From positions 10,482-74,481 of the forward strand of contig CANRQB010000003.1 of NCBI GenBank assembly GCA_947632645.1: DNA of 64,000 bases, read 5' to 3'. Under the pieces are notes generated by a model. That model did not search any database. It was not told the origin of the DNA and was given only the letters and a program-made list of their open reading frames with translations. Both the position numbers and the translations under genes were made by a program. The DNA comes from an uncultured Clostridia bacterium (GTDB lineage Bacteria > Bacillota > Clostridia > Christensenellales > UBA1242). Positions 3,483 to 58,633 of the stretch are shown piece after piece. How positions within the stretch are numbered: position 1 is the first letter of the stretch; every line of letters begins with the position of its first letter.

Positions 3483-6012
3483 ATTTAGATAGATTTGTAA
3501 CTGCTTTATAAGCTTCTAAAGCGTTGTCAGGCACATAAATTTTAAAGTCAGTTTGCAAATAGTTGCTGTGCAAGGTGTTGGCTTGTATAGCTGGTGGTTT
3601 TTCGCATTTAAAATATATGTATTTACGCTGTGTTTTATCTAGCGTATCCGAAGTTGTTCCGCCAAAGGCATTGGCTGCTAGTATCAAACAACTTTTAGGT
3701 ATTTCCACATAAGGGCTGTCACCATGACTATTAAATTGTGTACTTAATAGGGTTACCCCCTCTGGGATAATTATTGGCTTTTTAAATGATATATACTCTA
3801 CAAATCTTTCACAATATTGCGTAAGTTTGCATGCAGTAAAATCCACCTCTTCTAGTGTGCAATATGTTGTGTTAGAAAAACAGCCCGAAGCTATATAGTT
3901 TAGCGATGCGGGCAAAACTAGGCGAGTGCTGTATTTGCAGCACTCGGAAAAGCTCATGGTGTTGCAACGCTCTAGTGTGTTGGGCAGCTGTTCTAGTGGC
4001 ACACCCTTGCAGTTTTTAAAGCCACACTCTTGCACCACCTTTAAATTTTTAAGATCGCAAAAATTTGTTATAGTAATTGGCAAATCGCTGTTGGTGCAAT
4101 AAAAGGCATAGGTGTCTACAGTATCGGTGTTTGGGCTTAAGGTTATGTCAAACGAACATCCCTTGTTGTAAAACGAATATCTGCCTACAGTGGTGCACTC
4201 GTCTGGATATGTGTACGATATAGGCAACGAAGTGTCTATCAATTGTGGGCAGGTTAATGCGCGCAAAACGGTTGTGTCTTGTGCCGAGCCGCCCGCCTCT
4301 AGCTCGCCAGAGGTTAGCACGCCATTAGAGTTATAAAACATCTTTCCAAGCAAAACATCTTTTTCGGATGCAGTTGTAAGCGAAAAGTCAGTTTCGGTAT
4401 GCGTGCCTGTTTTAATAATTTTGTCGCCAGCAAAAAAGGTTTTACCCAACACAACATCCTCTTCGGTCGCCGTGGCTACAGATAGGTCGGTTTCTACATA
4501 TGTGCCAGTTTTAAGCTCGTTATTTTGGCTATAAAATTTTTTGCCATACATAACATCCTGAGCTTCTGCATCTGCCAAACCAAAATCGGTATCCACATGC
4601 GTGCCCGTTTTAAGTTGATTGTTGCTTGCATAAAAGGTTTTGCCAGCTACAACATCTTTTTCATCCGCGTTGGCAAGCGTAAAGTCAACATCCTCGTGCG
4701 TGCCTGTTTTAAGTGTGCTATCTTTTGCATAAAAGGTTTTACCTTTAACCACATCCTCGCTAGTTGCGTCGGCAAGGCTAAAATCGGTGTCCACATGTGT
4801 GCCAGTTTTTATCTGCTTATCCTTTGCAAAAAAAGTTTTTCCAACTACAACATCTTCTTCGGTTGCGGTTGCGGCATCCAGTTCGGCATCGGTATGCGTG
4901 CCCACTTTAAGTTCGTTATTTTGGCTGTAGAATTTTTTACCTTCTACCACATCCTCACTAGTTGCATCGGCAAGTGTAAAATCGGTATCTACATGTGTGC
5001 CCACTTTAAGCTCATTGTTTTGGCTGTAGAACTTTTTGCCAGCAACAACGTCCTCTTCATTGGCATCGGCAAGTGTAAAGTCAGTGTCTACATGTGTACC
5101 TGTTTTAATTTCTTTATCCCCAGCAAAAAAGGTTTTTCCAACTACAACATCCTCTTCGGTTGCGGTTGCAATATCTAACTCGGCATCGGTATGAGTTCCA
5201 ATTTTAAGTTGGCTATCGCTTGCATAAAAGGTTTTGCCAGCTACAACGTCTTCTTCGGTGGCATCTGCCAAACTAAAATCGGTGTCCTCGTGGGTGCCTG
5301 TGCGTTTAACGTGATCGCCGCCATAAAAGGTTTTGCCTTTAACTACATCTTGTTCGGTGGCGGTGCCAGAAAAATCTGGTTTAACATATTTGCCAGTTTT
5401 AATAAGATGATCGCCAGCATAAAAGGTTTTGCCAAAAGCAACATCCATTTCAACCGCATCAGCGTTTTTAAAAACTGGCTTTACATAGCTGCCAGTTTTA
5501 AGTTTATCGTCGCCCGCATAATAGGTTACTCCAAACGCTACGTCGTCAGCTGTGGCGGTGGCGGCGGCGTAATCTGGATCGGTATGCGTGCCTGTTTTAA
5601 TTTCTATATTGCCTGCAAAAAATGTTTTGCCTGCTTTAACATCTTCTGGTGATGCTGTGGCAGCGGGAAGGTCGGCATCCTTATGGCTGCCTGTTACAAA
5701 ATTGCCAAATTTATCGTAAAAGGTTTTATTAAACTTTACGTCATCGGCTGTGGCGGAAACATTACTGTAATCAACATCCTCGTGTGTGCCAACCTTAAGT
5801 GTTTCGTCCTGACTATAAAAGGTTTTGCCCATTTTAACATCTTCTGGCATAGCGGTGGCGTTTGTTAAATTTGCATGAGTTATGGTTTTTATGCCTGCGG
5901 TAATTTCGCTTGGGCTGGGGTTGGTGTAGGTGGTAGAAACTTTTCCACCCTTATCTTCTATTGCTTTTTTCTGGGCGATAAGTTCGTGTTTTAAGCGTTC
6001 CAAACTATCCAT
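3442..6012 (-). CDS. Repeat protein: coiled N-terminus, 16 x 33-aa GKTFY repeats, C-terminal BspA-type (Cys-rich) leucine-rich repeats; no signal peptide
   Basis: 856-aa ORF. The repeat consensus is xADAxEEDVVxGKTFYxxxxxLKTGTHxDTDF. The C-terminal region has FxxCxxL-type LRR units (YAFYCTNSDLPITITNFCDLKNLKVVQECGFKNCKGV..., ASGCFSNTTYCTLEEVDF). The ATG overlaps the upstream micro-ORF stop. Confidence 0.8.
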   Translation of the reverse strand: MDSLERLKHELIAQKKAIEDKGGKVSTTYTNPSPSEITAGIKTITHANLTNATAMPEDVKMGKTFYSQDETLKVGTHEDVDYSNVSATADDVKFNKTFYDKFGNFVTGSHKDADLPAATASPEDVKAGKTFFAGNIEIKTGTHTDPDYAAATATADDVAFGVTYYAGDDKLKTGSYVKPVFKNADAVEMDVAFGKTFYAGDHLIKTGKYVKPDFSGTATEQDVVKGKTFYGGDHVKRTGTHEDTDFSLADATEEDVVAGKTFYASDSQLKIGTHTDAELDIATATEEDVVVGKTFFAGDKEIKTGTHVDTDFTLADANEEDVVAGKKFYSQNNELKVGTHVDTDFTLADATSEDVVEGKKFYSQNNELKVGTHTDAELDAATATEEDVVVGKTFFAKDKQIKTGTHVDTDFSLADATSEDVVKGKTFYAKDSTLKTGTHEDVDFTLANADEKDVVAGKTFYASNNQLKTGTHVDTDFGLADAEAQDVMYGKKFYSQNNELKTGTYVETDLSVATATEEDVVLGKTFFAGDKIIKTGTHTETDFSLTTASEKDVLLGKMFYNSNGVLTSGELEAGGSAQDTTVLRALTCPQLIDTSLPISYTYPDECTTVGRYSFYNKGCSFDITLSPNTDTVDTYAFYCTNSDLPITITNFCDLKNLKVVQECGFKNCKGVPLEQLPNTLERCNTMSFSECCKYSTRLVLPASLNYIASGCFSNTTYCTLEEVDFTACKLTQYCERFVEYISFKKPIIIPEGVTLLSTQFNSHGDSPYVEIPKSCLILAANAFGGTTSDTLDKTQRKYIYFKCEKPPAIQANTLHSNYLQTDFKIYVPDNALEAYKAVTNLSKFKDKIFPISQLAE
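4282..5862 (-). repeat. 16 tandem 99-bp (33-aa) coding repeats
   Basis: Counted from the translation (aa 51-577). The repeats are also recognisable at nucleotide level through shared runs such as gtgcccactttaag, ttttggctgtagaa and gcatcggcaagtgtaaa. Confidence 0.9.
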
Positions 6013-6178
6013 AAATACCCTCTAAAACGTTATCTAAATCTTCCTGTAAAAAATAACACCCTTTTAAGATAAAATCCAGTTCGTTTTCAATAAGCAAAAA
6101 TTGATAATAATTTTCCAACCGTTTTTCCACACCAAAAACTTTTTTGTTTGTAAGGTCTAGGTTGTTAAATTCTTCCAT
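6005..6178 (-). CDS. 57-aa micro-ORF translationally coupled to the repeat protein
   Basis: Below the track length cutoff. My translation: MEEFNNLDLTNKKVFGVEKRLENYYQFLLIENELDFILKGCYFLQEDLDNVLEGIYG*. Strong SD GGAGGAA (rc of 6181-6187) two nt upstream of the ATG at 6178. The TAG stop (6007-6005) overlaps the downstream ATG (6012-6010) by 8 nt. Confidence 0.5.
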   Translation of the reverse strand: MEEFNNLDLTNKKVFGVEKRLENYYQFLLIENELDFILKGCYFLQEDLDNVLEGIYG

Positions 6179-6306
6179 TTTTCCTCCTTTATTTTATAAT
6201 TCCCAAATAATCCTAACATTTTTTTTGTTAATTTTTGGCTAGATAATGACAAAAAACTTGTTTTTGACATAAATTTATGATATAATTAAAAAAATTTGGA
6301 GGAGTT

Positions 6307-6912
6307 ATGAAAAATTTAAAATGTCCATTTATTTTGTTTGCTGTGTTTTCCGCCTTTATAATTGGCTGGCAAACGGTTTCTAACAACCTAATATTTTCTG
6401 GTGTAAGTGTGCCATTTGTAGCCCTTGTGCTTATTTTGGCAGCGCTAACCTTTGCCATTGTAACCAATAAGGAGCTAAGGCATCGCATACTAGATTTATA
6501 CATAGTTGCTTGCGTTTTTGTTGTGCTGGAATTTATTGTGTATCTAGTGCTAGAGTTTTCGCTTGGCAACAGCAAAACTTGGCAAGGGTTTATCACCTAT
6601 CAAAATGTGCTATGTGTGCTTGGGCTTATATATCTTATCTACATTGTTTTCCGCGCAATATACGAGGCAAAGGGGCTTAATCTAACTGGGCTAGAAATTA
6701 TTTTGGGCAACAAAAAACCAGTTAAAAAAGTTAAGCAAGCCAAAGAGTTTGCAAATGGCAGTTTAGAGGCAAAGCCTAATCAAAAACATCTAGACGAGCA
6801 AAAAGTAGACGAGCCGGCAGCAGAACAAACGGATAGCCAACCAGTAGAACAAAACACTGTCGCTAACGAGGATAACAGTTCGGTTGATACTAAACAAGAA
6901 GGGGAAGAGTAA
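6307..6912 (+). CDS. Integral membrane protein (about 4 TM segments) with an acidic C-terminal tail
   Basis: SD GGAGGAG upstream of the ATG. Hydrophobic segments FILFAVFSAFIIGW, VPFVALVLILAALTFAIV, IVACVFVVLEFIVYLVL and VLCVLGLIYLIYIVF. No family recognised. Confidence 0.6.
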   Translation: MKNLKCPFILFAVFSAFIIGWQTVSNNLIFSGVSVPFVALVLILAALTFAIVTNKELRHRILDLYIVACVFVVLEFIVYLVLEFSLGNSKTWQGFITYQNVLCVLGLIYLIYIVFRAIYEAKGLNLTGLEIILGNKKPVKKVKQAKEFANGSLEAKPNQKHLDEQKVDEPAAEQTDSQPVEQNTVANEDNSSVDTKQEGEE

Positions 6913-36247: not shown

Positions 36248-39200
36248 TTGCGAGGGGTTATGGGTAAATTTAAAAAGGTATTTGCAATTTTTGTGTCGGT
36301 TATACTTTTTGCAGTGTGCGGTTTTTTAACGGGCTGCGGCAATAAATATAAAAATTTAAAGTGGGAAATTTCCTATTCGCTAACTCAAGAAGGGGAAATG
36401 CAATGGGTAAAACTAGATAACAACAATTTAAATTTAAATTTTGGCCAGGGCGGCAATATTCTTGCTGACGAGGATGGCAGTATCCACTGCAATTTATACA
36501 TCAAAGCAAAAATAAATGGGGTTAAGGGCAACCACCTTGGGCAAATAATCGTAACCAATACGGGCAGTGGCAACAACAGCGGCGGCGCCCTATCCATATC
36601 TAGAACTATCAATAATAATGAATACATAACCATTAGGTTAGACCTTTCTAAAGAAGAAAATATATCCACTCAACTTAATTTTCGCGAAATAAATTCGGGC
36701 AAAAACACCAATGTAAACTTAAGTGTCTCGCCTTTATTGTCCAGCATGTCGATGGATGTAAATAAACTTACTCCGGCCGTGTTGGGCGCAAGCGTACAGC
36801 TAGATGCAAGCAAATCTATTTTATTTTCACCAATAGGCACCACCGATCGTGATGTCCAATTTTCATTTGATGGGGTGGTTGGTAGCTACACCTCTCGTTA
36901 TGATTTAGCCACTGGCGGAAACGAACTTAGCGAGGATGAATTTACACGAGATAGCACAACCGACACTTCTAAAATAACGGTGTCGCCAACCGGGCTTGTA
37001 ACAATCCCTGCCGATTATCAACTAACCAAAAACAACTATGTGGTGCGCGTTAAAGCCACAAGCATATCAAACCCTAGCATGTCCTGCTATGTTGATGTGT
37101 ATGTTGTGGATGGCAAAAACAAACAAATAGCTTTAAATTTTAACAACTCTACTGCAACCCCAGTGCAAGACGAATTTTCACTTTATCTAACCCTAACCAA
37201 AACTGCTAGCGCAAACTCGGGCGAAAATAGCGAGGCAGTGTCCTTGTTTAATAAAGCGGAATTGGTGCTAAACAACGACGAAATTTCGAATGATATATAT
37301 TTTAAGGGCTTGCAAACAAAAAATCGCAACATCCGCGCAAAATATACACCAGAGGTGTATATAAGCGGCAAAAATAGGGATGCTAGCCCAGTTGCAAGTG
37401 GCGAAATTAAAGAGGGCCTAAAAGTTTCTAACACGGACAATCTTTATGTGGTAGAGGCGGTAGACCCAAATGTGGATTTTAGCGCAGATAGATATTTAAA
37501 CTTTAAATACGTTTTGGAGGGGTTTGAATATAGTGACCTTTTGCCAACCTTTGCCAGCGAGGATATTAAGGTTAATTTGTCTTATCTAGCAAATGCAATC
37601 GAGGCAAACAACCTTACCGATTTAGACCCATCCACGCCTGAATTGGATACTATAATTTACAACACACAAGACACAATTTTAACTTCGTTTGACGTGTCGC
37701 CAAAGATGGCTAAATATAATTTTAGCGAAGACAATAAAATTTTAATTGAGCCATTGCTAGACAGCTCGTCTAATGGTACACTTACCTTTAACGGACAAGC
37801 CGATTTGGCGGTTGAACAAAACGAGCAGGTTAAAATTGCGCTAAACGGTAGTAGCGCACGCTTTAAAGTTAGCGTTAGATGCGTGCCAGAAGTGTTTGCG
37901 GGCGAAGAGGTAGACTCTACATATGTTAACATTAAAAAAGAAGTGAGCCTTATTGTAAACGTGCAGAAAGTTGTTACAGCATCTAAAGTAGAAGCGTACG
38001 CCAATCAGCAAACCAGATGGTCGTCTAGCGAGCTGGATGGGGCAATCAACCTAAATTTCGACGATATAAAAAGTGTATATTTAAAAGTGTATTTCGACGC
38101 TGACGATGCGCAAAATTTTGTGCCATCTAGCGTTGCGCTTAATGTAGCAAACAATGCAATACAATTTGTAACCGATAGTGGCGAAAGGGTTTCTAACATA
38201 AATTTAAGCCAGCTAATCCCTATTGCAAGAAAACCAGTTGGCGAAGCCGGGCAAAACTATTTTTGGTATAAAATAGATTTAGAAACAAGCGGAGCAACGG
38301 TTTACGACACCTTTAACATCGGCGTTAAAGCGGGCGACGGCAGGGTTAATTTGTCTAGCGATTCGGATGCCAACTTTACAATTAGATATGTAACCCCTTC
38401 TAATGGCAATTTTAGGGTTTTAACCGACAACACCAACAATAATATCTTAATAGAAGATAACAATCTATCCTCAACCGCATACGCTGTGGCAATAACTGGC
38501 AACAGCGCCAACTTTAGTTTGGTGGATAGTTTAAATAGCGCAACAGGCATAAAGGAAATTAAGGTTGTGCCATCTAGGAGTGTGCCACTAAGCAATTCGC
38601 AATTTAGTGGCAATGCCGAAATTTTGCCAAACACTTATAGCGCTACCAACACATTTAGCTTTAATCCAAAAGGCGAGTATACGCAAATTTTGGATGTTTA
38701 TGTGCATTACTACGCCAAGGATAATGGCATAATAAAACTTATTAAAAACTATGTGGATTTGCAAGAACAGCCAACGCTTACCGTTCAGCTTGCTGCGTTT
38801 AGGCGTGCAACAAAAATTAATATTACAAAAATCACCGACACAAATGATGCGGACACCAATCTGGACAACTTGCGTGTGGCATATTTCGAGGGGTTCCCAC
38901 AAGCAGGCGAGTTAAAATTAAATATTTCCACCGACGAAAATGTTAAAAACGAGGTTTATTTCCTTGCTGCTAATGGCGAGGTTATAACCAAAACGGGCGT
39001 TAACAATTTGGCAGTAAGGCTTGGGCAAAACGAGGCAATCGCTTCTGGCCAAAACAGCTATTACGATCAAGCAGTAAATTTGCAAATAGACCCTAGCCAA
39101 AACGGAAAAATAGTCACCTTTAATTTAAGCAAACAATATTCAGCTGAACTGTTTAGGCTTAATATTGGTACGCTTACTTTAGGCCAATTTTCCGACAATA

Positions 39201-51200: not shown

Positions 51201-54200
51201 TAACCATAACCAGCGCAGCAACCGGTGGTCAATCACCTTTGCCAACCAAATATCTGGGCGGCATATATGGCAAAATTAATGGCGGCGGAATTAGTGGCAC
51301 ATCAATCAACGTCGTTATTGGTGACGGCAGCAGCATATCTGCAAAAAATTTAGGCGGCATTGCAGCTGAGGTAAATAATGAGGGTAATAAAACCTTTACT
51401 GTGTCTAATATTATTTCCATAAATGCCACTGAAACTTCAAGCACTACTATAATAAATAACGAACACTTTGGTGGCATAGCAGCCACATTCCGTGGCAAAA
51501 TTGAATTTACAAAGGATGCAGCGTTTAACCTAGGCAACACTTCTGCACAATTTGAAGTGTACAAATCCAACGAGACAAAGGGCTATGACGACACAAATTC
51601 TGGTGTCGGTGGTTTGTTCGGGCGTATGGCAGAAGCCAATGCAACAATACATCTTGGCGTATACAACATCAGCTTAGTTGCCACAACTAATGGCGAACAA
51701 ATTGGTAAAGCAAATGTGGGTGGCTTAGTCGGTTTTGCAACAGGGGAAAACGTTTTATCTATCACGGGGCTATCTGACGAAGGCAACATAACAGTTGCAG
51801 GTATGCAAAATGTTGGTGGCTTGTTTGGTAGGGTAGATCAACTTGTTAGGGCTAAAGATAACCCAAGCAGCGACGGGCAAACTAGCCAAGAGGACGATGG
51901 CTTAATCAACTATTACAATATAGATGAAGATAAGTTAAATATAACCGTCAACATCAGCGAATACCAGCACAATATTGGTGGCTTAATTGGCTACTACGAA
52001 AATAATAATAACGAAAAAATTGGCACAATACAAGAAACCAATGATGGCGCAACAACCGAAAAAGCGGACAACATAACCTCTAACGCAACGCTAAACTTTG
52101 TTTCTAACATAACAGCAAACAATGAAAACACCTTCTCGTACAATATAGGCGGCGTATTTGGTCAAATTGCAAAGGCGGGTAAGGTATCCAACCTAACCTA
52201 CAGTGGCCAGTTCAAAGGTGTTTCAGACCCAAACAACACGCTTATATCGTTTGACGAAAGCATTCAAGCAGATAACGACAAAACCACAATGTTCCGCACA
52301 ATAAATGTAGGTGGCGTAATTGGTAGCGCAGGCACCACAGTTACAGACAACGCGCAATCCGTCGAAACCTTCGATATCACAAACATAACAACAACCACAC
52401 AACAAATAATTGGCTATCAAAATGTGGGCGGGCTTATAGGTTACGCAGTTAATGTAAACATCTACAACACAAACGATCTATTTGCAGAAAGCGATCAGAC
52501 GATCAAAGCCAACAACAGCGCTAATGTCTATGGCGTAATAAACGTTGGTGGCTTGGTGGGTATGGCAGAAAATAGCATGGTTGGCGCATATGCCGAACTA
52601 CAAGAAATCAGCACAGAAGGTGGCACAGAAAATCAGTTGGTTTTAAAAGGCTATGGATTGGCAACCAGTGGCAGCGTGTATGGCAACTACAACGTTGGCG
52701 GGCTGGTAGGGTTTGCAGCAAAAACCTTAAATATATCCAACCCTTCAGGCGTGTATGCTAACACCATACTATCAACCGAAACATCAACTCCAGAAAGCAA
52801 AAAATTTGCGGTAGAAATAAAAGGGCTACCATATTGCGTAAGCTACTACATCTACGACAACGGAGGCCAAGAAACCTACACCTACTACATCCCATCCAAC
52901 ATAGGTGGGCTGGTTGGTTTTGCACACTCTGTAGCAATAGACAGCAACAAATTTAACATGGCACAAGGTAGTTTAGCAGCTGTAACCTCGTCGGAAGAGG
53001 GCACAAACAGCAACAACGACAACGGCGTGGTTATAAGCACAATATCCAACTATGTGGGCAGCGTTCTAAACGGCGACAACATAGCCGAAGCATATTTGGG
53101 CAGAAATTTAAGCAACGATAGCACTACTGCCAACGCTAGCAAAGGGGTTTTCTTCAAGAACGATTACGGAAACCAGGCAGCTGACTTCAAAGTTGAGTTT
53201 AAGGATATGAAATCTGGCTTTGGCGGGCTTGCAGGCGGAGTGGTAAAATTGCAATCTCCAATCGGCAAAGAACAAGGCAACACGCTTGGCAATGTAAGCA
53301 TCGAGGCGCAACTTGGCATCAATGTTGGCGCACTGTATGGCTTTGTTGGCAATAGCGATAGTTATAACTTTAACGCAATTGTTAAAAGCGCAACCATATC
53401 GGGCAACATCTCGGTTGATGGTGGCTACTTTATAGGTGCAATTGCGGGCAGTGTGGATGTTGGCCAGTCTATCCAGGATGATGATGGTAGTGCCTTCAGC
53501 AACGAAAATATTAAGGCAGCAGATGGGCAATCCGCAAGCATAACCCTACAATCTAAATACACCGGCATGTATGTGGGTGGCTTGTTTGGCAAACTTCACG
53601 CGCACGATAACGATATGTTATCAATGGTTAGCAGCAATGTTAACATCACTATAGACACCAGCAAATCTTACTACATGGGCGGCCTGGTTGGCATGTACTA
53701 TGTAACTGGCGATACCGCTAACCCTTCAGTAAAATTAACTGGCAATGTGGATAAAGAAGCAGTTGTCACCCTTACTAAAAAAGGCGTAAAAGATCCTGCT
53801 TCTATTGGCGAATTTGGCGGCTTTGTTGGCATGCTTAAGGTAGAAAAAACCACAGGCGGCTCTGCCGATGTAACCATTTCTAATGGCGGCAGCCAGCCAT
53901 ACGCCTTTACCATCAACACTATAGAAAACGGCAACTACTACGACGGCCCAAGCAAAACCGAGGCACAAAACTCTAACGAGGGCGTAAACTTGGTGGCAAT
54001 GGCAACATATGTTAACCAAGATAGATTTACCATTTGCCCAACAAGCAATTCTAGTTGGTACACCTTGCCAGGCCGTGACGGATTTAGCGGCAATAACCCA
54101 TTAAAACCTAGTGCATCCACCGGCTGGGCAAAAGATTACACTATGTTTAAAACCATGCAGCGCTGCATCCCAGCAGGCAAAAATACTAATAATCAACAAC

Positions 54201-57200
54201 AGATACGCAGCGGAACGGAAGAGTGGGACGCAATTTCAGTGGTGTACGATGCCGCAAACATAACCTATGTTGCAACCCAATCCAACTCGGGATATACACT
54301 TAACCCATATGATGATGGAACAAATTTAAAAGCCAAGTATTATCACGATGAAGATGTGCGAACAACTTTATTTGGTGAAAATACTGAGAAGAGTGAAACT
54401 ACAACGACATTAGAAGGTGCAGACTACATCATTTGCACCATTTACGAGGCAGTAGATGGCCAACCTATGCTGTATTCTAAAATAGGTATTGCCGAACCAT
54501 ATAAAGACGAAAATGGTAATTATGGTGAGCCAGAAGATATCTCTAAAAATGGCTTTAAGATGTTCTTATATGCAATGGGAATGTCTAGCAATGTCCCAGA
54601 ATCTATTGCAAATTTAGATTTTTCTAGTACTGAATGGGGAATAGTCACACTTGCGCCATTGCCAGATAGGTATTATGGTGGCATTTTAGCTATGGATTCT
54701 GTAGATCCGAATCAGGGATATTATAAAATTAATAAATCCCTTGCTGATAGATTTGCAACCGAAGACGCAAGTAGTTCATTAGTAACATATAATTATAATA
54801 TAAAAAATTACTATCGATATAATTCAGGGAGTGATGACAGTGATGACAGTGACCTTTCCAAGAACACCCCGACATGGTTCCAGTTTAAAATGTTTTATGA
54901 AAGTGAAAAACTAGGTGGAACTGATTATACCCCTAACGATGGTAGTATATTTAATGTTACTGGTATGACAACTGATAATGTTCAAAACAAATTATATAAT
55001 AAAGGCAATTCATATAAAGGTTTAAAATGGATAGGGATCATTGTAGATGCTGTACTTACTGTTGCAACTTTAGGTGTGGGCAGTGGATTTATGGCGGCAA
55101 AGGCGGCTGGACAGCTTGTAGCCAAACAAATTGCGAAATATATAGCAAAAGCTGTTTTAAGATATGGCATAAGAACTGCTATTGCGCTAGGAGTTTTACA
55201 TCCTTTAATAAACCAAGCCCTAGCACAACAAACTGCATCAAATACATATTATGATGTTCAAGATCAAACTATGGGATTCTTGGGTATGTCATATCAACGG
55301 GAAGTTTCATATCGTGACGGAAAAATGAACACTGCTATAGATGGCGGAAATTATATTGATCCTAAGACAGGTGCACAATATATTTATTATAGTAGTGTAA
55401 GGCCATCAGATTATTATACTAATTTCTATTATGTTTACTATGATTATGACCCAACTAAGCCAGAAGGACAACAAGTACAAACCAGTATAGTAGAATTTAA
55501 TGATGAAAATTTAATATTTGAAGAGGATAATTATTATACAAGATCCGGTGGGATATTTGAAGGTGCTATGCCATGCAAATACAACGGACAAGATGCCGCA
55601 TGTTATTACTATTATCTAATTAACAATGGGGCCTATTATGTGCTTATGGATGCTACCACTATTGATTACATACCTGTACAACCATTCTTTGAAGAAAATG
55701 AGTACAAACCTTATCTAGATTACATTAATCAGATTAATTATTATATCAGGGGTAGTTATAATGGCACTACTTATACAATAGGTGAATCTAACGATATGAA
55801 TAGTTACTTGTATTATGCAGACAATACTAACACTACTATAATGCGCAAAAATAGTACAGAAGGTGGTTCTGAAATTACATTACCTAAAAGCATAAAATTT
55901 GAAGAAAGAACCGAATTACATTATGTGCCTGTGGATCAAAGTTATTTATTTGGCGAAGGCAATGAGGATGGTTTATACAAAAATTTAGATAATACAAATA
56001 AAGTTCTTGAAGATACAGGGAAAGACCACAAAGATTTAAATTATGGCTATGGCTATATGAAAAATGCTTATTATACCGCAAATGGTGACAAAACATATAT
56101 TAATAATAGTGGTGCAGTTGTTGAAATAAATAGCTACTCTTCAATTAGGCCATTAGTCGGTAAATTTGTAGAAGGACCAACTTCTGGTAACGAAGGCATA
56201 GATTATGTAACTATCAATGTAGACGGAAATACTAGATCTTTTGTATTTGATAGCGTTACAACAGAGGCTGGTACAGATATTGGAGAGTTAAAAGGAACTA
56301 ACATAATAGAAGATGCAAGCGGTGATTACATCAATGTAAATCTATATCCAAAATCTTTTACTAATCCATATTCTGTACAAGGTGGTGAAACAACAAAAGA
56401 TGAAGACATTTACTATATTTTATCTACAGCGATATCTCAAAATTTAACCGATTCTACTGGTCAACCTATTGGCTTATCTCACAATGCAACCTATTTCTAC
56501 TTTGACGGCGGATATAAAAGTGACGCGGACGGAAGAGTATTTACTGAATTATTTATTGGCGATAAAACACAAAATAATTCTATTAAAATAGATGTACAAA
56601 AAGACGATAGCCCAGGGCTAGGCGGGACGGTTGTACAGCCAAGTGCACAGCCAAAACCTTATTATAGTTTGTATTCAAATAAAGACTTACGATTACTTAC
56701 AGATGATGGCAATGGTAATGAAATTAACGATGCTTACAGACCTATAAGGATATACGGACCATGTAGCGATGATTTGGAAAAATTAACATTCGAAGATTTT
56801 GTAAATGGCTATGAAACAACTTACAAAGGTTACTATATGTTGTCAGACACAGAATTAAATGGGATATCGGAAAATGTAAAATCAATGTATTTGGTATCAA
56901 ATTATTATAAAATATATGATGCAGAGCCATTAAAATACCCAGATGATTCTGGTATTGTGTGTGATAGTAATGAAAAACCAATAACCAAAAGAATTTATAT
57001 TATTAATAATTATAATATTATAAATGACGATATTAATATTTTAACAAGTGTTAATATTAAGTTACCTAATACAGGCGATGGCAATATATCTTATAATTAT
57101 AATAAGTATTGCCTGAGTGCCGATAAAAATATTTATACTAGGTATTATTATACAACGCTACAAGATGGCAATGAAATTAAAATACCTACTTCAGATGGAA

Positions 57201-57361
57201 ATGAATCTTATTGGTTGTACAAACCAAATTCTACCTGGCCAAATGCTGGAACAACCAACTTTGTAGAAAGTGTCCGCGTAATTCTTGGCGGCGGCGATAT
57301 CTTCTATGACAAAGATGATCTTAATGGTAATCATTCAATAGGCACAATATCTTGTCAATAA
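36248..57361 (+). CDS. Giant (7,037-aa) surface lipoprotein: Ig-like domains, at least four GLUG-type beta-solenoid cassettes, C-proximal hydrophobic segment, Tyr/Asn-rich tail
   Basis: Single open frame of 21,114 nt. Start is TTG 36248 (AGGAG 11 nt upstream) or ATG 36260. See the findings for domain evidence. Confidence 0.9.
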   Translation: MRGVMGKFKKVFAIFVSVILFAVCGFLTGCGNKYKNLKWEISYSLTQEGEMQWVKLDNNNLNLNFGQGGNILADEDGSIHCNLYIKAKINGVKGNHLGQIIVTNTGSGNNSGGALSISRTINNNEYITIRLDLSKEENISTQLNFREINSGKNTNVNLSVSPLLSSMSMDVNKLTPAVLGASVQLDASKSILFSPIGTTDRDVQFSFDGVVGSYTSRYDLATGGNELSEDEFTRDSTTDTSKITVSPTGLVTIPADYQLTKNNYVVRVKATSISNPSMSCYVDVYVVDGKNKQIALNFNNSTATPVQDEFSLYLTLTKTASANSGENSEAVSLFNKAELVLNNDEISNDIYFKGLQTKNRNIRAKYTPEVYISGKNRDASPVASGEIKEGLKVSNTDNLYVVEAVDPNVDFSADRYLNFKYVLEGFEYSDLLPTFASEDIKVNLSYLANAIEANNLTDLDPSTPELDTIIYNTQDTILTSFDVSPKMAKYNFSEDNKILIEPLLDSSSNGTLTFNGQADLAVEQNEQVKIALNGSSARFKVSVRCVPEVFAGEEVDSTYVNIKKEVSLIVNVQKVVTASKVEAYANQQTRWSSSELDGAINLNFDDIKSVYLKVYFDADDAQNFVPSSVALNVANNAIQFVTDSGERVSNINLSQLIPIARKPVGEAGQNYFWYKIDLETSGATVYDTFNIGVKAGDGRVNLSSDSDANFTIRYVTPSNGNFRVLTDNTNNNILIEDNNLSSTAYAVAITGNSANFSLVDSLNSATGIKEIKVVPSRSVPLSNSQFSGNAEILPNTYSATNTFSFNPKGEYTQILDVYVHYYAKDNGIIKLIKNYVDLQEQPTLTVQLAAFRRATKINITKITDTNDADTNLDNLRVAYFEGFPQAGELKLNISTDENVKNEVYFLAANGEVITKTGVNNLAVRLGQNEAIASGQNSYYDQAVNLQIDPSQNGKIVTFNLSKQYSAELFRLNIGTLTLGQFSDNKELLVRVVGFSKTTQIALDADGLENNNIYTSFIDGKDIQFDITAIVSWAQILNNNLTNGKLGYQLYKYLQNPDGSLSYKDGKAECYQIEDLEGISIDDFTYQPQQSSTSLTAKTKFTATYTGTNLLGGVYKLIIGTLDSYSELNGYTTYQEITIFIGDGSIANKFSISSQQDFEKINNNLSAHYVLTEDITLNEEFVPIGFAANQIEIFTGSLTGRNVMYVDGREFVEQHSITLTLNMANARQYNGEYLLGLFAYLGTNTTDSAIDNVTNIQLELNFTGNFSSEASAVVGGVAAINRGRISAVDITLNNQISFAGLNNLTFGGYVGRNFGRVDVKNAKISNESTNVNIDVSNSSFGLIAGEMSNDAEIVGNFDSNKFMNLAYNVAANIVVNLAENSTLDFGLAAGKVQSGKIANLAVGGNVSINGVSATAYVGLVGSAQNARVSYSAVVSANITNNASSGSVAGIVANSLGGNTINNCKVMFDLLGARGEDNLSKFTSTSQQVLIAGVLVANTAVQDTIIYVSVENISSSNKLAIDGAGEVAGLVLNSGNTNLSVSFAAINMSGSTIYPISNTSEENCYYIGQVESYEKFTKNDKAVNSYAVVVLGDKLYSVYQQKEYKVEEIDFSQFFNEEPLTKWDIDDGEFYSHNYYDSEYNKVDDYSSLQDDQQYYELKEEWDANVDYYGSNGTVDTYYSIGEFSNEFSYYSLSSFVNDLYEAILPNVIQDSTIENQFTNIWGLGQHNQIDLGEFSFNLPYLKYDGKALNVDRTQSFYVSAISQNKQQVSHVQKTDSGYVAIINYHSLGSIPQDAALDVDNKFNTYNIINNGSNNGLITIVGAGNVSLSFEIVSGGQFAEIVNYTQIKFTGVSGALPICLRIYSTLTNSHEDVIFYTQYGATDVSVTDNVSNSVETLTGLGGALEYGVNVYVTNSSKNDSDISLQINAQNRVGLNSFNSILQNLNVEVQNNISLNLVCLESDKQDYLTYRQSGQSVVISPNKDVLSQVESSRVEVRYLLKLEFVKNYYTQNNADFNGENINYGQVYITFTIYQAATEIYSSNTSYEIGVGTTAKIDTTLITTRTGGLSSDVPLNFVKGEINPNHLIVQDDKADSLYIDFELVEGEDVFNAIKNYTGISSITDWFDNYNGILISKSVKEDGKIEYSISLTVKNEFNFRRITSNIKLKIKMYAQSNQQISNEILLTVKPEQLNENKIQINAYKIRQNQIIDNNGHAIVIESNETESVQSGTAGGLLVISLQPSYTNIDFSDIRLTSERVGETYIQFEQMILDRQTGQYITYINNNDILDGDIIVGKRLAPYSERVLEDGEYKFIYTGTFYVRMYLSKFVVQGQQVGINLDVNKINEDNSLEPVNLHKNLYTEFVANVIPTYEGGYEVGSNGYEWVIDGETSEQYNSYLIQKNSTNNVVKLRIYGYEYNSQPTISFNKLIKTQNNFEYTLGDTIDIGYRFNTNFGVPPVKESDGAYVIEIVLSVGDIDTPFIINTNLNVSLDGVGHFTNNKIIFHPTDHIIQDIRLDEVVNGEFRINLGSSRAVNISFETKNGSGNVALNDIFREDLQDIINLYTINNGEYLNPEADYTIFDINKAQTENSKALVLRAKTPGNVAFKFELDYYYEMQDNGCFNVHFGTKAGDTIYPYSKRIDFTLVVNDAYSSETAPIAIRNEAEFLAINGTTSESNYILMADLTLENYPTITANFNSFDGNNHIITIKSFSSDQLASYGLFSTIGSAEEGRTTTLKNIIVSYQDVNLNLTDNETALTSTENGVVFGGLVANLNEGGIIYNCDVMNVSLTEAATLNSINITMPNNPNAKITFGGMVGINNNGIITNSRVGAEEYLQIRESNGVILEKPYETEVVTFNIGNTNADTNQFIGITGGFVGVNAGRIASSFVQRTNLYNYSKAETSQTAGFVAQNGIAGLISYSYVKSLPVTNIKELSLGTAIENKSSGNVAGFVHLNMGEVSNCYANVEVKSKSTFISGFVFRNDSTGYIHECYAAATLNGNRADAGTQNNISEQPFVGYKNGDVQSYGKMENVYFYNNSSNIHQVTQTERPIAVDLNKANIQNPKYLHGFAFVMSDNSIRERNQGVWSYYEYDTNNTRVLPEINTANNIAHSYRYYDENSQLVYAFKYNLGSSNNPDIIRNITDYNEVFGGNDDSGNARNFYTGHVRFINDLDFENIYIPITSKNYTLGSDEEIASIEGNGMKIKNVRFSTNAHETTNEIGLFANIKNSYIKNLTITLGNEPSVGNTKYLGALAGKVEDSVLINIDIDGANIKLEGSNFVGGLAGIITGSSLIYGVSSNVSVVADVNKGADANIYYNRADFDAMKQQGYFARVSYEEYLDNADRTSSDGLSYAGGIAGVIDLVRRGQEEFNMQFITINKPQSAYDSGVNYSQVIDADFAGGVAGYFGGGDKDNVIKAKKIKFYTLTSNAEGETGSQIVGGNTAGGLFAISNGHIEASQVTSVEKEIDAEALYNQYDIDTAFAKHVTNTEQALDKTAAGNLNLISGKSYAGGLVGISLNANLTSVYAKAGFDLSKATNSTVVGGLVGLSIGGQVSYSYAVPFINKTANNITLGGLIGRVYNYNIETDVNNIANAKEKQAYIYTTNVFNNTSEFIAQYTFSTLIKEKSTTVESENIRYFIADSNAKETYKVDGSNLISVYVGTNYTFDSIVQDADISNANEYGERDLTDLYNTSIDAVFNEIFESYSQTSYWSLNNNRYFPLLLDERASNRIEIWDESDLPSIKANPDGDFAIKKDFSITAKDANYVLPITFTGSIISETLSGATATITIQGLNPNVNGNAGFFRETNGAYIENIIFNWQPQEDNTSDNPASVDIGKNGAITIDYFGGVSAVDTGSTFRALQVVSKAANTSITGQILKTSNDSSSIAKFGGLIGIGTDSRVQSCLFDAKLNANVKGFGVDSTVAFGALAAEAMGSSSITDNRSESSSQGMAEEEDGDLNKNLSISGFNVSNETSFTLYSANNQNETVSNAYIGFVVGYVQGNAENSFISSLTIGESSSANTSKPTINIGQNNNFNVNTLNVGAVAGRLDQLLEVSNARVVADINYNCKPISTLQPIINIGGVVGSVSSCAISEVVSQVNINVKPTNNSNCAAKLSNGFALAGNVTISECSFMGEIDATQGENTSDIRNIVAAGVIAEAEYTVNINDVFAYPIINAGTSTTESLHLAGLIANNNSKLNASGIMLGGRLMVDNSNINPSGNEEANTDNSLYIGGIIANGYKKNVTISNAEVLTSILTDGLKNSDAQYLQNVNALFGGNMGTINGNIVYSSDFALVAENLDGDKDKIFNLTARNITSANNNWLDYWQGDTSSFARAANGAPYLSTISRQLNSLGILAGNQYTNNANATQFSPQQYSNTDDYRYYLVSESLPAIEGAFKGVLIGTEEIALTDTINLTNLEGQDEAGIIPIVEKHSAISNIHILVQTDISSDANIKGILVGLNQGVVSNCSVGGTNINLATTGILAGLVGRNTGTMQYCYSSAEYVSISASEFAGLVYANNGKLAYSYFTGYIENQSTAYGILGNNGQAQNEDRGYLFSNYMAGVVVNVSPNANSFGNYGNNYYGKFNYIDANANSEQITRQEISSDPNTDSGVAIVDTINIMAANKYTTADQCLQGIWHTIVQQTTGSGDAIHYQLNSQAATFGYNYGYPVYRFNKVSGVSSSVIDDNKWQLYTGDGKWQKAGASDGDTQERANNLFNKTMYNDMYTMYDNAYKIPHLGVLKSVNLIANDNLNFVFIYNIDGKIKNSSNTAYATAGSIGSDVCGGFTNDAKQFTGVVVSNKYYNFTDLNSGDSDVIISNISTNGLFTNVKNSYFGNIKFAGNFNLLNGTSAAGVLISSTAAIENDQNNEQNNISINNINFVSNNETNVTEITINSSDRETETSAAALIGLVNTSTTVTIGNFGIIEGCNLIISGSSGESDTSTNYAGLVAGQNKGTITFYSGFDNLKVAFNSCNYAGGLIGLNNGGTLTLDSSNNNKLTITSAATGGQSPLPTKYLGGIYGKINGGGISGTSINVVIGDGSSISAKNLGGIAAEVNNEGNKTFTVSNIISINATETSSTTIINNEHFGGIAATFRGKIEFTKDAAFNLGNTSAQFEVYKSNETKGYDDTNSGVGGLFGRMAEANATIHLGVYNISLVATTNGEQIGKANVGGLVGFATGENVLSITGLSDEGNITVAGMQNVGGLFGRVDQLVRAKDNPSSDGQTSQEDDGLINYYNIDEDKLNITVNISEYQHNIGGLIGYYENNNNEKIGTIQETNDGATTEKADNITSNATLNFVSNITANNENTFSYNIGGVFGQIAKAGKVSNLTYSGQFKGVSDPNNTLISFDESIQADNDKTTMFRTINVGGVIGSAGTTVTDNAQSVETFDITNITTTTQQIIGYQNVGGLIGYAVNVNIYNTNDLFAESDQTIKANNSANVYGVINVGGLVGMAENSMVGAYAELQEISTEGGTENQLVLKGYGLATSGSVYGNYNVGGLVGFAAKTLNISNPSGVYANTILSTETSTPESKKFAVEIKGLPYCVSYYIYDNGGQETYTYYIPSNIGGLVGFAHSVAIDSNKFNMAQGSLAAVTSSEEGTNSNNDNGVVISTISNYVGSVLNGDNIAEAYLGRNLSNDSTTANASKGVFFKNDYGNQAADFKVEFKDMKSGFGGLAGGVVKLQSPIGKEQGNTLGNVSIEAQLGINVGALYGFVGNSDSYNFNAIVKSATISGNISVDGGYFIGAIAGSVDVGQSIQDDDGSAFSNENIKAADGQSASITLQSKYTGMYVGGLFGKLHAHDNDMLSMVSSNVNITIDTSKSYYMGGLVGMYYVTGDTANPSVKLTGNVDKEAVVTLTKKGVKDPASIGEFGGFVGMLKVEKTTGGSADVTISNGGSQPYAFTINTIENGNYYDGPSKTEAQNSNEGVNLVAMATYVNQDRFTICPTSNSSWYTLPGRDGFSGNNPLKPSASTGWAKDYTMFKTMQRCIPAGKNTNNQQQIRSGTEEWDAISVVYDAANITYVATQSNSGYTLNPYDDGTNLKAKYYHDEDVRTTLFGENTEKSETTTTLEGADYIICTIYEAVDGQPMLYSKIGIAEPYKDENGNYGEPEDISKNGFKMFLYAMGMSSNVPESIANLDFSSTEWGIVTLAPLPDRYYGGILAMDSVDPNQGYYKINKSLADRFATEDASSSLVTYNYNIKNYYRYNSGSDDSDDSDLSKNTPTWFQFKMFYESEKLGGTDYTPNDGSIFNVTGMTTDNVQNKLYNKGNSYKGLKWIGIIVDAVLTVATLGVGSGFMAAKAAGQLVAKQIAKYIAKAVLRYGIRTAIALGVLHPLINQALAQQTASNTYYDVQDQTMGFLGMSYQREVSYRDGKMNTAIDGGNYIDPKTGAQYIYYSSVRPSDYYTNFYYVYYDYDPTKPEGQQVQTSIVEFNDENLIFEEDNYYTRSGGIFEGAMPCKYNGQDAACYYYYLINNGAYYVLMDATTIDYIPVQPFFEENEYKPYLDYINQINYYIRGSYNGTTYTIGESNDMNSYLYYADNTNTTIMRKNSTEGGSEITLPKSIKFEERTELHYVPVDQSYLFGEGNEDGLYKNLDNTNKVLEDTGKDHKDLNYGYGYMKNAYYTANGDKTYINNSGAVVEINSYSSIRPLVGKFVEGPTSGNEGIDYVTINVDGNTRSFVFDSVTTEAGTDIGELKGTNIIEDASGDYINVNLYPKSFTNPYSVQGGETTKDEDIYYILSTAISQNLTDSTGQPIGLSHNATYFYFDGGYKSDADGRVFTELFIGDKTQNNSIKIDVQKDDSPGLGGTVVQPSAQPKPYYSLYSNKDLRLLTDDGNGNEINDAYRPIRIYGPCSDDLEKLTFEDFVNGYETTYKGYYMLSDTELNGISENVKSMYLVSNYYKIYDAEPLKYPDDSGIVCDSNEKPITKRIYIINNYNIINDDINILTSVNIKLPNTGDGNISYNYNKYCLSADKNIYTRYYYTTLQDGNEIKIPTSDGNESYWLYKPNSTWPNAGTTNFVESVRVILGGGDIFYDKDDLNGNHSIGTISCQ
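36260..36337 (+). other. Lipoprotein signal peptide with lipobox LTGC
   Basis: MGKFKKVFAIFVSVILFAVCGFLTGC followed by GNKYKN. Confidence 0.75.
55028..55225 (+). other. Hydrophobic/amphipathic membrane-association segment of the giant protein (aa ~6261-6326)
   Basis: WIGIIVDAVLTVATLGVGSGFMAA (hydrophobic), KAAGQLVAKQIAKYIAKAVLRY (amphipathic, Lys-rich), GIRTAIALGVLHPLINQALA (moderately hydrophobic). Confidence 0.55.
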
Positions 57362-57387
57362 AAAATCCACTTTAAGTGGATTTTTTT
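57362..57387. terminator. Bidirectional intrinsic terminator shared by the convergent genes
   Basis: ATCCAC (57365-70) pairs with GTGGAT (57376-81) around the loop TTTAA, flanked by A5 and T7. Confidence 0.75.
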
Positions 57388-58447
57388 ATTTGTTTTTTAC
57401 TTCATAATAATTATATGGATTAGTATGCCCAATTTGAGTTCCATAACTAAATGAGGTTATATTTCGCAAAGAGGCTTTGTATTCATCATCATAATTAAAT
57501 TTTACCCTATAAGCATCTGCTAGATAATGCACGTTACCTTCATAATTATCAATACCAGTATATCGTGTAGGTGTAATTCTAACAGTGCCAATAGTATTTT
57601 TAAAATAATTTGAATATGTTGTTCCTCTAGAAGTGATGGTTATTTCGTTTTCATTAAAGCCTATAATGTCTATATCTATTTTATTATATTTATTGACATT
57701 AACATTATCCCACTTAGTAAATTCTTTAATCATATCATTGTATGAATAAATAGCAATATTTACTTTAGATTGTACTTTAGGATTTCTTAGATTAGCTAAC
57801 TCTTGTATATAATATAGTCCTTGTACATATTCGCCTTCACATAGATATGTATACTCTTCATATTCTTGATTTGTTAATGGATATTTTAGCACATAGTTGG
57901 TGTAGTAGTTGCCATATTGGCTAGAAGAAACATTTTCTGCCTTTACTGAAACGTATATGTGATTTTTATCGTTATCGTAAATATAACTGCTAGCAAATAC
58001 ATCTAATGTGCCATCTAAATAAGCATCTACATTATGCCCATTTTCTCTTAAAAATTTATAAGGAATTGGCTTTACATCATTAGATATTCTAAATCCATTA
58101 TCGTAAACTTTTTGCCATAAATTTCTGTTTTCTTCAGTTAAAATATTTGACAAAATATCACTAAATTCTGTTGTTTCGTCATCATTATTTCCGCCAGGGT
58201 TTAAGCCACCGGGGTTGGTGCCGCCAGGTTGTTGCTGCCCAGTTGTGGTTACATTTTTGCAGTCCGCCGAGCACGCCGCCAGCCCAATAGCCGCCAGCGC
58301 CATAGCGCCCGCCAGCACAAGCCCAGCAATTGTCCTAACAATTTTATTTTTGTTAGCGATTTTAACATTATTCAACAACTCTTGTGTTTCTTCCGTCATC
58401 GCACTTTTTCTAGCCAATTTTTCTCTAATTTCGTCTATCAACGACAT
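57386..58447 (-). CDS. Membrane-anchored/lipoprotein with Pro/Gly linker and a Tyr/Asn-rich domain (353 aa)
   Basis: The ATG at 58447 follows GGAGGG. TM/lipobox IAGLVLAGAMALAAIGLAAC, then QQQPGGTNPGGLNPGGNNDDE. No family recognised. Confidence 0.65.
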   Translation of the reverse strand: MSLIDEIREKLARKSAMTEETQELLNNVKIANKNKIVRTIAGLVLAGAMALAAIGLAACSADCKNVTTTGQQQPGGTNPGGLNPGGNNDDETTEFSDILSNILTEENRNLWQKVYDNGFRISNDVKPIPYKFLRENGHNVDAYLDGTLDVFASSYIYDNDKNHIYVSVKAENVSSSQYGNYYTNYVLKYPLTNQEYEEYTYLCEGEYVQGLYYIQELANLRNPKVQSKVNIAIYSYNDMIKEFTKWDNVNVNKYNKIDIDIIGFNENEITITSRGTTYSNYFKNTIGTVRITPTRYTGIDNYEGNVHYLADAYRVKFNYDDEYKASLRNITSFSYGTQIGHTNPYNYYEVKNK

Positions 58448-58633
58448 ATTCCCTCCAAAATCTAACCGCAATTTAAGCCAATTTATAGCCGATTTATCTA
58501 AGCCGCAAATCAACTAAACAAATTTTAATTTGCAACCAACCGCGCAATTAGAATAATTATTATAATTATAATCTGAAATCATCTATTTGTCAATACTTCA
58601 GCCAAAAATTAATCAAAAATCCCCCAAAATCCC

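Follow-up and report, generated by a model that had tools for sequence, protein, structure and literature searches.

The stretch analysed here (the window) comprises 64,000 nucleotides of contig CANRQB010000003.1, from an uncultured clostridial bacterium of the UBA1242 lineage (assembly GCA_947632645.1), and carries a gene for a giant protein whose C-proximal end, two hydrophobic helices joined by a basic loop and followed by a Tyr-rich domain, is the subject of this work (Table 1). The ATG at 36260, and not the TTG at 36248, probably opens the gene, as judged from the AGGGG Shine-Dalgarno sequence that precedes the ATG and from the N-termini of orthologues, and this start gives a product of 7,033 aa. 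Whole-genome searches recovered single open frames of 6,601-7,204 aa for the same protein in related genomes, and in this genus the giant gene takes up 2.4% of the genome. A Pfam scan of the whole protein in two pieces (~3,600 and 3,537 aa) matched zero families at E ≤ 0.01, and nothing meaningful emerged down to E = 10 when the full-length protein or the tail was compared with Pfam and NCBIfam. VGGLxG-like motifs are visible by eye in the body of the protein, and the families GLUG (PF07581) and Peptidase_M26_N were unmatched in the two-piece Pfam scan at E ≤ 0.01.

The N-terminus reads MGKFKK-VFAIFVSVILFAVCGF-LTGC, with a basic n-region, a hydrophobic h-region and, as an initial annotation of this DNA had pointed out, a lipobox, which follows the [LVI][ASTVI][GAS]C pattern. 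The eight orthologue N-termini that could be read all end their signal in the same way (LTGC, FSAC, LSAC or LYAC), making nine of nine with the query. The source genome also encodes both of the processing enzymes, Lgt (PF01790, contig C9, E 2.8e-58) and LspA, the signal peptidase II (PF01252, contig C2, E 2.5e-28), and these are found in 15 and 16, respectively, of 16 genomes of the genus. With the signal and the enzyme genes both present, the giant protein is probably a lipoprotein processed by Lgt and LspA.

Table 1. Features of the giant gene and its surroundings, in nucleotide positions of the window and residues of the giant protein.
Feature	Position (nt)	Strand	Residues (aa)	Remarks
Giant gene, single open frame	36248-57361	+		7,037 codons counted from TTG at 36248
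Lipoprotein signal peptide	36260-36337	+	27-30 (lipobox)	lipobox L-T-G-C at its end
Juxtamembrane motif G-S-I-F-N-V-T-G	54941-54964	+	6232-6239	~30 aa upstream of helix 1
Hydrophobic helix 1, WIGIIVDAVLTVATLGVGSGFMAA	55028-55099	+	6261-6284	ends in invariant Gly turn G6280
Polybasic, weakly amphipathic loop, KAAGQLVAKQIAKYIAKAVLRY	55100-55165	+	6285-6306	predicted to be cytoplasmic
Hydrophobic helix 2, GIRTAIALGVLHPLINQALA	55166-55225	+	6307-6326	weak in the source genome, strong in several orthologues
Tyr-rich, beta-rich C-terminal domain (tail)	55226-57358	+		711 aa; no known family; predicted to be extracellular
Post-hairpin motif D-Q-T-M-G-F-L-G-M-S-Y-Q-R-E-V-S-Y	55262-55312	+	6339-6355	conserved
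Moderate-confidence part of the AlphaFold2 tail model	55358-56560	+	model residues 140-540	most 10-residue blocks at pLDDT 70-90
C-terminal motifs N-x-N-K-Y ... I-Y-T-R-Y-x-Y ... P-N-x-G-T-T-x-x-V-E-S-V-R-V-x-L-G-G-G	57095-57292	+		conserved
Hairpin AAAAATCCACTT/AAGTGGATTTTT shared between the two convergent genes	57362-57385	.		likely bidirectional terminator, as read from sequence
Convergent neighbour gene	57386-58513	-		predicted membrane-anchored protein of ~355-375 aa; no family match

The peptides on which the initial annotation had based its description of the C-proximal region lie where it had placed them, with 711 aa following the hairpin. The first of these had been read as the one convincing hydrophobic helix. 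The helix is there, and its Kyte-Doolittle value of 1.83 (19-residue window) is second in the whole protein after the signal peptide at 2.55, but on the Hessa scale, for which we used insertion values from the literature, it is borderline in the query alone (+3.85 kcal/mol, with a stretch of the body beta-helix at aa 3272-3290 scoring +3.69), and the relatives show two helices, not one. Its terminal Gly turn corresponds to G49 of our alignment A2, which is invariant. The Lys-rich segment that follows does contain six Lys/Arg and no Asp or Glu, but its supposed amphipathic character is less clear, since in the query alone the helical hydrophobic moment of 0.51 is equalled in 11% of shuffles. 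The hydrophobic stretch behind it, already described as weaker, scores +6.7 to +6.9 kcal/mol and contains His and Pro. Taken alone, the query sequence is therefore a borderline case for membrane helices, and because the Hessa score of helix 1 is no better than that of the body stretch, this helix becomes convincing only after the relatives have been added.

With aa 6200-7037 as the query, a HMMER scan covering 1.84 billion representative proteins returned 12 matches, all of them C-terminal ends of giant proteins, or fragments thereof at contig edges, with the order of elements in common. A scan of genomes yielded 23 loci in metagenome-assembled genomes (rabbit, 'BRZ' and chicken, the last as 'Candidatus Onthoplasma'), and at each of these the module terminates an open reading frame that is uninterrupted over all 10 kb of flank, or as far as the contig reaches if it is shorter than that. 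In none of the matches is the tail a stand-alone secreted protein. In every relative the elements run in the order G-S-[IVM]-F-x-V-x-G, ~30 residues, helix 1, loop, helix 2, D-Q-x-x-G-F-L-x-x-S-Y-x-R and tail, and two hydrophobic helices are found at the same position in all 26 relatives that have the region, with none lacking the segment. Hydrophobicity over the last 3,000-4,000 aa was compared in 19-residue windows for the 18 orthologues in which 2,500 residues or more could be read. The peak window lies in the hairpin block in all 18, and the two highest windows both lie there in 14, the block making up ~3% of the sequence. Identity within the block is ~18% and hydrophobicity is nonetheless kept, a pattern that, at the level of sequence, is typical of membrane helices; in several orthologues the helices are near-pure Ala/Val/Ile/Leu/Gly, with an apparent free energy of insertion (dGapp) below 0.

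The segment leading into the hairpin is also conserved. The first Gly of the juxtamembrane motif is invariant, and its Ser, Phe and second Gly are present in at least 90% of 21 sequences. Immediately upstream, a module at 53700-54940 (aa ~5830-6230) has the highest conservation of the last 3,300 residues, reaching ~50% identity near aa 5888-5940, and includes the motifs FGGLVGMLKV, YAFTINTIENSNY, GWAKxYTMFK, WDxIxxVYDA and TIYE. A profile search of PDB sequences gave no match to this module, and its AlphaFold2 model, with a mean predicted local distance difference test (pLDDT) score of 42.6, was not used.

The distribution of charge provides an indication of topology. Across 26 proteins the net charge of the loop averages +4.46, with up to 14 Lys/Arg in a loop and three acidic residues in total over all loops, and the means for the flanks are -0.27 in the 15 residues before helix 1 and +0.08 in the 15 residues after helix 2. 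Applied to this pattern, the positive-inside rule would place the loop inside and both flanks outside. The loop takes two forms, one of 2-14 uncharged residues joining very greasy helices with dGapp values down to -3.7, and another of 20-48 residues with up to 14 Lys/Arg, nearly no acidic residues and weaker helices. Loops with more Lys/Arg accompany less hydrophobic helices (for helix 1, Spearman 0.76, a correlation that ignores relatedness and that only two to three independent changes underlie); in a tree of the tails the type of loop has changed at least twice, and the sister loci L007 and L013 are of opposite type with 100/99 support. This trade-off fits compensation between two determinants of topology.

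The tail beyond helix 2 aligns end to end in 21 sequences, and relatives share the motifs RPxDYY, GYGYMKxAYYTA, LYPxSFxNPY, YFYYDGGY, IYTRYKY and VESVRVxLGGG. It is Tyr-rich and free of GGxxG turns, just as it had first been described, with 11.3% Tyr against 5.3% in the body and no GGxxG against 29. A log-odds composition model derived from the same genome, using 153 cytoplasmic-type proteins and 19 signal-bearing large proteins, gave surface-versus-cytoplasm scores per residue of +0.060 for the tail and +0.066 for the extracellular body, with all 153 cytoplasmic proxies at or below +0.009. Since the composition of the tail lies outside the range of every one of these proxies, a cytoplasmic tail, as a single membrane pass would entail, is unlikely. 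The AlphaFold2 model of the tail, built on the 21-sequence alignment, is mostly beta, with a mean pLDDT of 57.8 and values of ~70-90 in the core at model residues 140-540. Foldseek searches with this model found nothing similar in the PDB (best E 0.59) or BFVD (best E 0.12), a profile of the tail had no match among PDB sequences, and no paralogues of the tail were found elsewhere in the source genome. Our guess, from the aromatic-rich composition, is that the tail binds wall or polysaccharide.

The giant protein has several features in common with polymorphic toxins, namely a giant filamentous body, a hydrophobic element, a compositionally distinct C-terminal domain and a drop in GC content at third codon positions (GC3), which falls from ~0.40 to ~0.21 over the last ~1,000 codons of the gene (54200-57361). 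In contrast to the tails of such toxins, however, the tail here is orthologous over its full length and conserved like the body, the neighbouring gene is convergent and not co-directional as an immunity gene would be, and the locus lies in conserved housekeeping synteny; Pfam and NCBIfam scans gave no match to toxin or pre-toxin families. A similar GC3 drop is seen in several, not all, orthologues (loci L001, L002, L006, L008 and L021), and this recurrence marks it as a property of the 3' part of the gene and not of a one-off acquisition. A tail swapped in as a polymorphic toxin, or acquired horizontally as a cassette, was accordingly rejected on the grounds of orthology, synteny, body-like conservation and the recurrent GC3 drop.

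At its true C-terminus (...GNHSIGTISCQ) the protein has no LPXTG sorting signal, in agreement with the first reading. A lone LPNTG pentapeptide is present within the tail at 57050-57064 (aa ~6935), ~100 aa from the end, and since it has no hydrophobic or basic stretch behind it that could anchor it, is unconserved and occurs in a genus without sortase, we regard it as a chance match. No sortase (PF04203) was found in any of the 16 genus genomes tested, but 7 of 10 further families in the order have it, so that the missing LPXTG is expected and membrane anchors would be the sole permanent attachment left to this lineage. Other large surface proteins of the source genome combine a signal at the N-terminus with a transmembrane helix at the C-terminal end. 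Four further very large predicted surface proteins are encoded at C1:38722, C2:71631, C7:11691 and C8:29076 (3,634, 3,322, 2,806 and 2,019 aa, respectively); two of them have an N-terminal signal and a transmembrane helix ~30 residues from the C-terminus, and together with the giant protein the four account for ~6% of the 885-kb genome.

We consider it reasonably probable from these comparisons that residues 6261-6326 form an N-out/C-out two-helix hairpin in the producer's own cytoplasmic membrane, and that the fibre is tethered at both ends. Of the two topologies that the initial annotation had entertained, the sequence data favour the loop held by a lipid anchor and a transmembrane hairpin, given the two helices everywhere, the positive loop, the surface-like tail and the retention of lipobox, Lgt and LspA, and they disfavour a single pass with a cytoplasmic tail of ~700 aa, given the second helix, the loop charge and the tail composition. 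Under such an arrangement, Sec would export the giant protein by way of its N-terminal lipoprotein signal, and Lgt and LspA would acylate it and cleave it at Cys30, leaving a lipid-anchored N-terminus. Some 6,200 residues of beta-helix-rich fibre would be threaded outward, helix 1 would act as a stop-transfer sequence, the polybasic loop would remain on the cytoplasmic side, where it would probably rest against the inner leaflet, and helix 2 would restart export to deliver the 711-residue Tyr-rich domain to the outside. Because the N-terminus would be held by lipid and the C-proximal region by the hairpin, the fibre would be tethered at both ends with its tail beside the membrane. The hairpin could then anchor a fibre used for attachment, or as a coat, in the envelope, and the tail may be the base of the structure, possibly together with the co-inherited neighbour protein described below.

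Several points weigh against a hairpin in the producer's membrane. Judged by the Hessa scale, both query helices are marginal (+3.85 and ~+6.8 kcal/mol), helix 1 holds Asp6267 (55046-55048), with an acidic residue there in ~15 of 25 relatives, and AlphaFold2 models the hairpin region as helical at a pLDDT of 31-46 only. The dependence of the loop-charge correlation on so few independent changes, and the small set of 19 surface proteins on which the composition test was trained, count on the same side. We also know of no characterised precedent for a 6,200-residue fibre that loops back through the cell wall to the same membrane. An acidic residue in helix 1 is found mostly in relatives with a polybasic loop.

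The main open alternatives to an own-membrane hairpin are insertion of the hairpin into another cell and proteolysis at the G-S motif. In the first of these, which we regard as unlikely, the fibre would be held by lipid on the producer, the marginal helices would pass SecYEG unintegrated, and the hairpin, carried at the distal end of the fibre and with its helix resembling cationic antimicrobial peptides, would enter the membrane of another cell, where the tail would act. The weak helices of the polybasic class (dGapp +1.6 to +6.7) would suit such a course, as would the acidic residue often found in helix 1 and the Lys-rich loop with almost no acidic residues and a moderate amphipathic moment, and a dependence on partner organisms has been predicted for the family UBA1242 (PMC12306168). 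However, about a third of the orthologues combine very greasy helices (to -3.7) with an uncharged loop of 2-14 residues, and these should partition into the producer membrane during export; moreover, co-translational control of topology predicts just what is seen here, helices that are less hydrophobic where the loop is more charged, and the Foldseek searches of the tail model detected no toxin, pore or fusion fold.

Proteolysis would be compatible with the hairpin topology but would change what is tethered: if the chain were cleaved near G-S-[IVM]-F, in the juxtamembrane style of SEA domains, the fibre and the hairpin plus tail would be two polypeptides, either joined non-covalently or separated. 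The invariant Gly and nearly invariant Ser ~30 residues ahead of helix 1, seen in 21 of 21 aligned sequences, and the strongly conserved module upstream of them invite this idea. We hold it to be decidedly unlikely, however, as there are zero sequence or profile matches to autoproteolytic families, the AlphaFold2 model of the upstream module is unusable, and the conserved G-S turn may be purely structural.

The single pass, in which helix 1 alone spans the membrane and the Lys-rich helix, the third stretch and the 711-residue tail are cytoplasmic, draws on the poor second stretch of the query (~+6.8 kcal/mol, with His and Pro inside) and on the basic residues that follow helix 2 in the orthologue L021. 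Against this, the second helix is present throughout the relatives and is strong in many (+0.6 in L011, -0.4 in L019 and -1.7 in P0007), the flank beyond it is uncharged on average, and the composition of the tail is not that of the cytoplasmic proxies, which together make the single pass very unlikely. That the helices are instead buried in the core of a soluble domain, leaving the N-terminal lipid as sole anchor, is so improbable that we set it aside, since, even if the Hessa hydrophobicity of the query is no higher than that of one beta-helix body stretch, hydrophobicity is conserved at ~18% identity, the helices of several orthologues consist almost purely of Ala, Val, Ile, Leu and Gly and have dGapp values below 0, the loop varies from 2 to 48 residues, a range that a packed core would not tolerate, and AlphaFold2 packs the helices against nothing with confidence.

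By analogy, the nearest characterised counterpart of a doubly tethered fibre would be Ebh/Embp of staphylococci, ~1-MDa surface proteins with an N-terminal export signal and a predicted C-proximal membrane-spanning region that replaces the sortase signal (PMC7587433). The likeness lies in a giant Gram-positive surface protein with an export signal at its N-terminus and a C-proximal membrane region in place of a sortase signal. Embp has a YSIRK signal and an unanchored N-terminus, whereas the giant protein here has a lipobox, and the body of Embp is built of alpha-helical FIVAR/GA repeats and DUF1542, in contrast to the beta-helix fibre here. Embp has a single membrane span with a short tail. 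Its transmembrane region is not described as a hairpin with a large ectodomain (PMC7587433), whereas here an ectodomain would lie beyond the membrane. No sequence similarity to Ebh/Embp was detected, and YSIRK, FIVAR/GA and DUF1542 were without Pfam matches at E ≤ 0.01. With bacterial lipoproteins the giant protein shares the sequence L-[TS]-[GA]-C at the end of its signal peptide and the presence of Lgt and LspA genes, but ordinary lipoproteins have no further membrane segment, whereas here a conserved C-proximal hairpin is added ~6,230 residues downstream. It likewise resembles LPXTG proteins anchored by sortase in being a large Gram-positive surface fibre or adhesin with an N-terminal signal, and differs from them in having no sorting signal and in belonging to a genus without sortase (0/16).

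The gene that converges on the giant gene (Table 1) adjoins it in 20 of the 23 loci and is convergent in 19 of those 20. At single-sequence sensitivity it was found in three of three genus genomes and in none of 78 from other genera. The possibility that its product is a paralogue of the tail was rejected (BLASTP best E 4.4), and we consider the neighbour protein a candidate partner of the tail. Synteny of the giant locus is conserved: spoIIID and a gene for a PP-loop ATPase lie upstream of it, rplJ and comF lie downstream, and this housekeeping context points to vertical inheritance of the giant gene within the genus. A profile of the tail identified it in 29 of 37 genomes of the source GTDB genus and in none of 24 further families within the order, and in a family-wide sample in 6 of 6 genus genomes and in none of 145 genomes from 53 other genera; the N-terminal 500 residues have the same genus-restricted distribution at single-sequence sensitivity. 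The source genome measures 885 kb in 28 contigs and is 88.5% complete, and those of the relatives range from 0.7 to 1.5 Mb. UBA1242, a family of the Christensenellales, has been described as genome-reduced, spore-forming and probably partner-dependent; its members have genomes of ~1 Mb, lack key steps of glycolysis and biosynthesis as well as standard transporters, and are thought to live off partners. The literature searched refers to the surface proteins of the family by no other phrase than 'hypothetical membrane-bound proteins' (PMC12306168).

In the boldest terms, and here we offer what we think rather unlikely to hold in full, the cassette of juxtamembrane module, G-S motif, hairpin (with or without a polybasic loop) and Tyr-rich ectodomain would form, with the neighbour protein, the membrane base of an undescribed cell-contact organelle, by which a single genus of gut Clostridia, reduced in genome and probably dependent on partners, would hold another cell, and in its most extreme version the weakly hydrophobic hairpin would leave the producer and insert into the membrane of the partner. 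Short of that, if double anchoring is true, it would constitute an uncharacterised, sortase-free way to mount a giant fibre on a Gram-positive cell, and the base of an attachment structure would be sought first in the tail and the neighbour protein. The family of hairpins would offer a natural series in which the trade-off between loop charge and helix hydrophobicity in setting topology can be followed, and the anchoring design, with lipid at one end and a hairpin plus ectodomain at the other, would have been kept across dozens of species.

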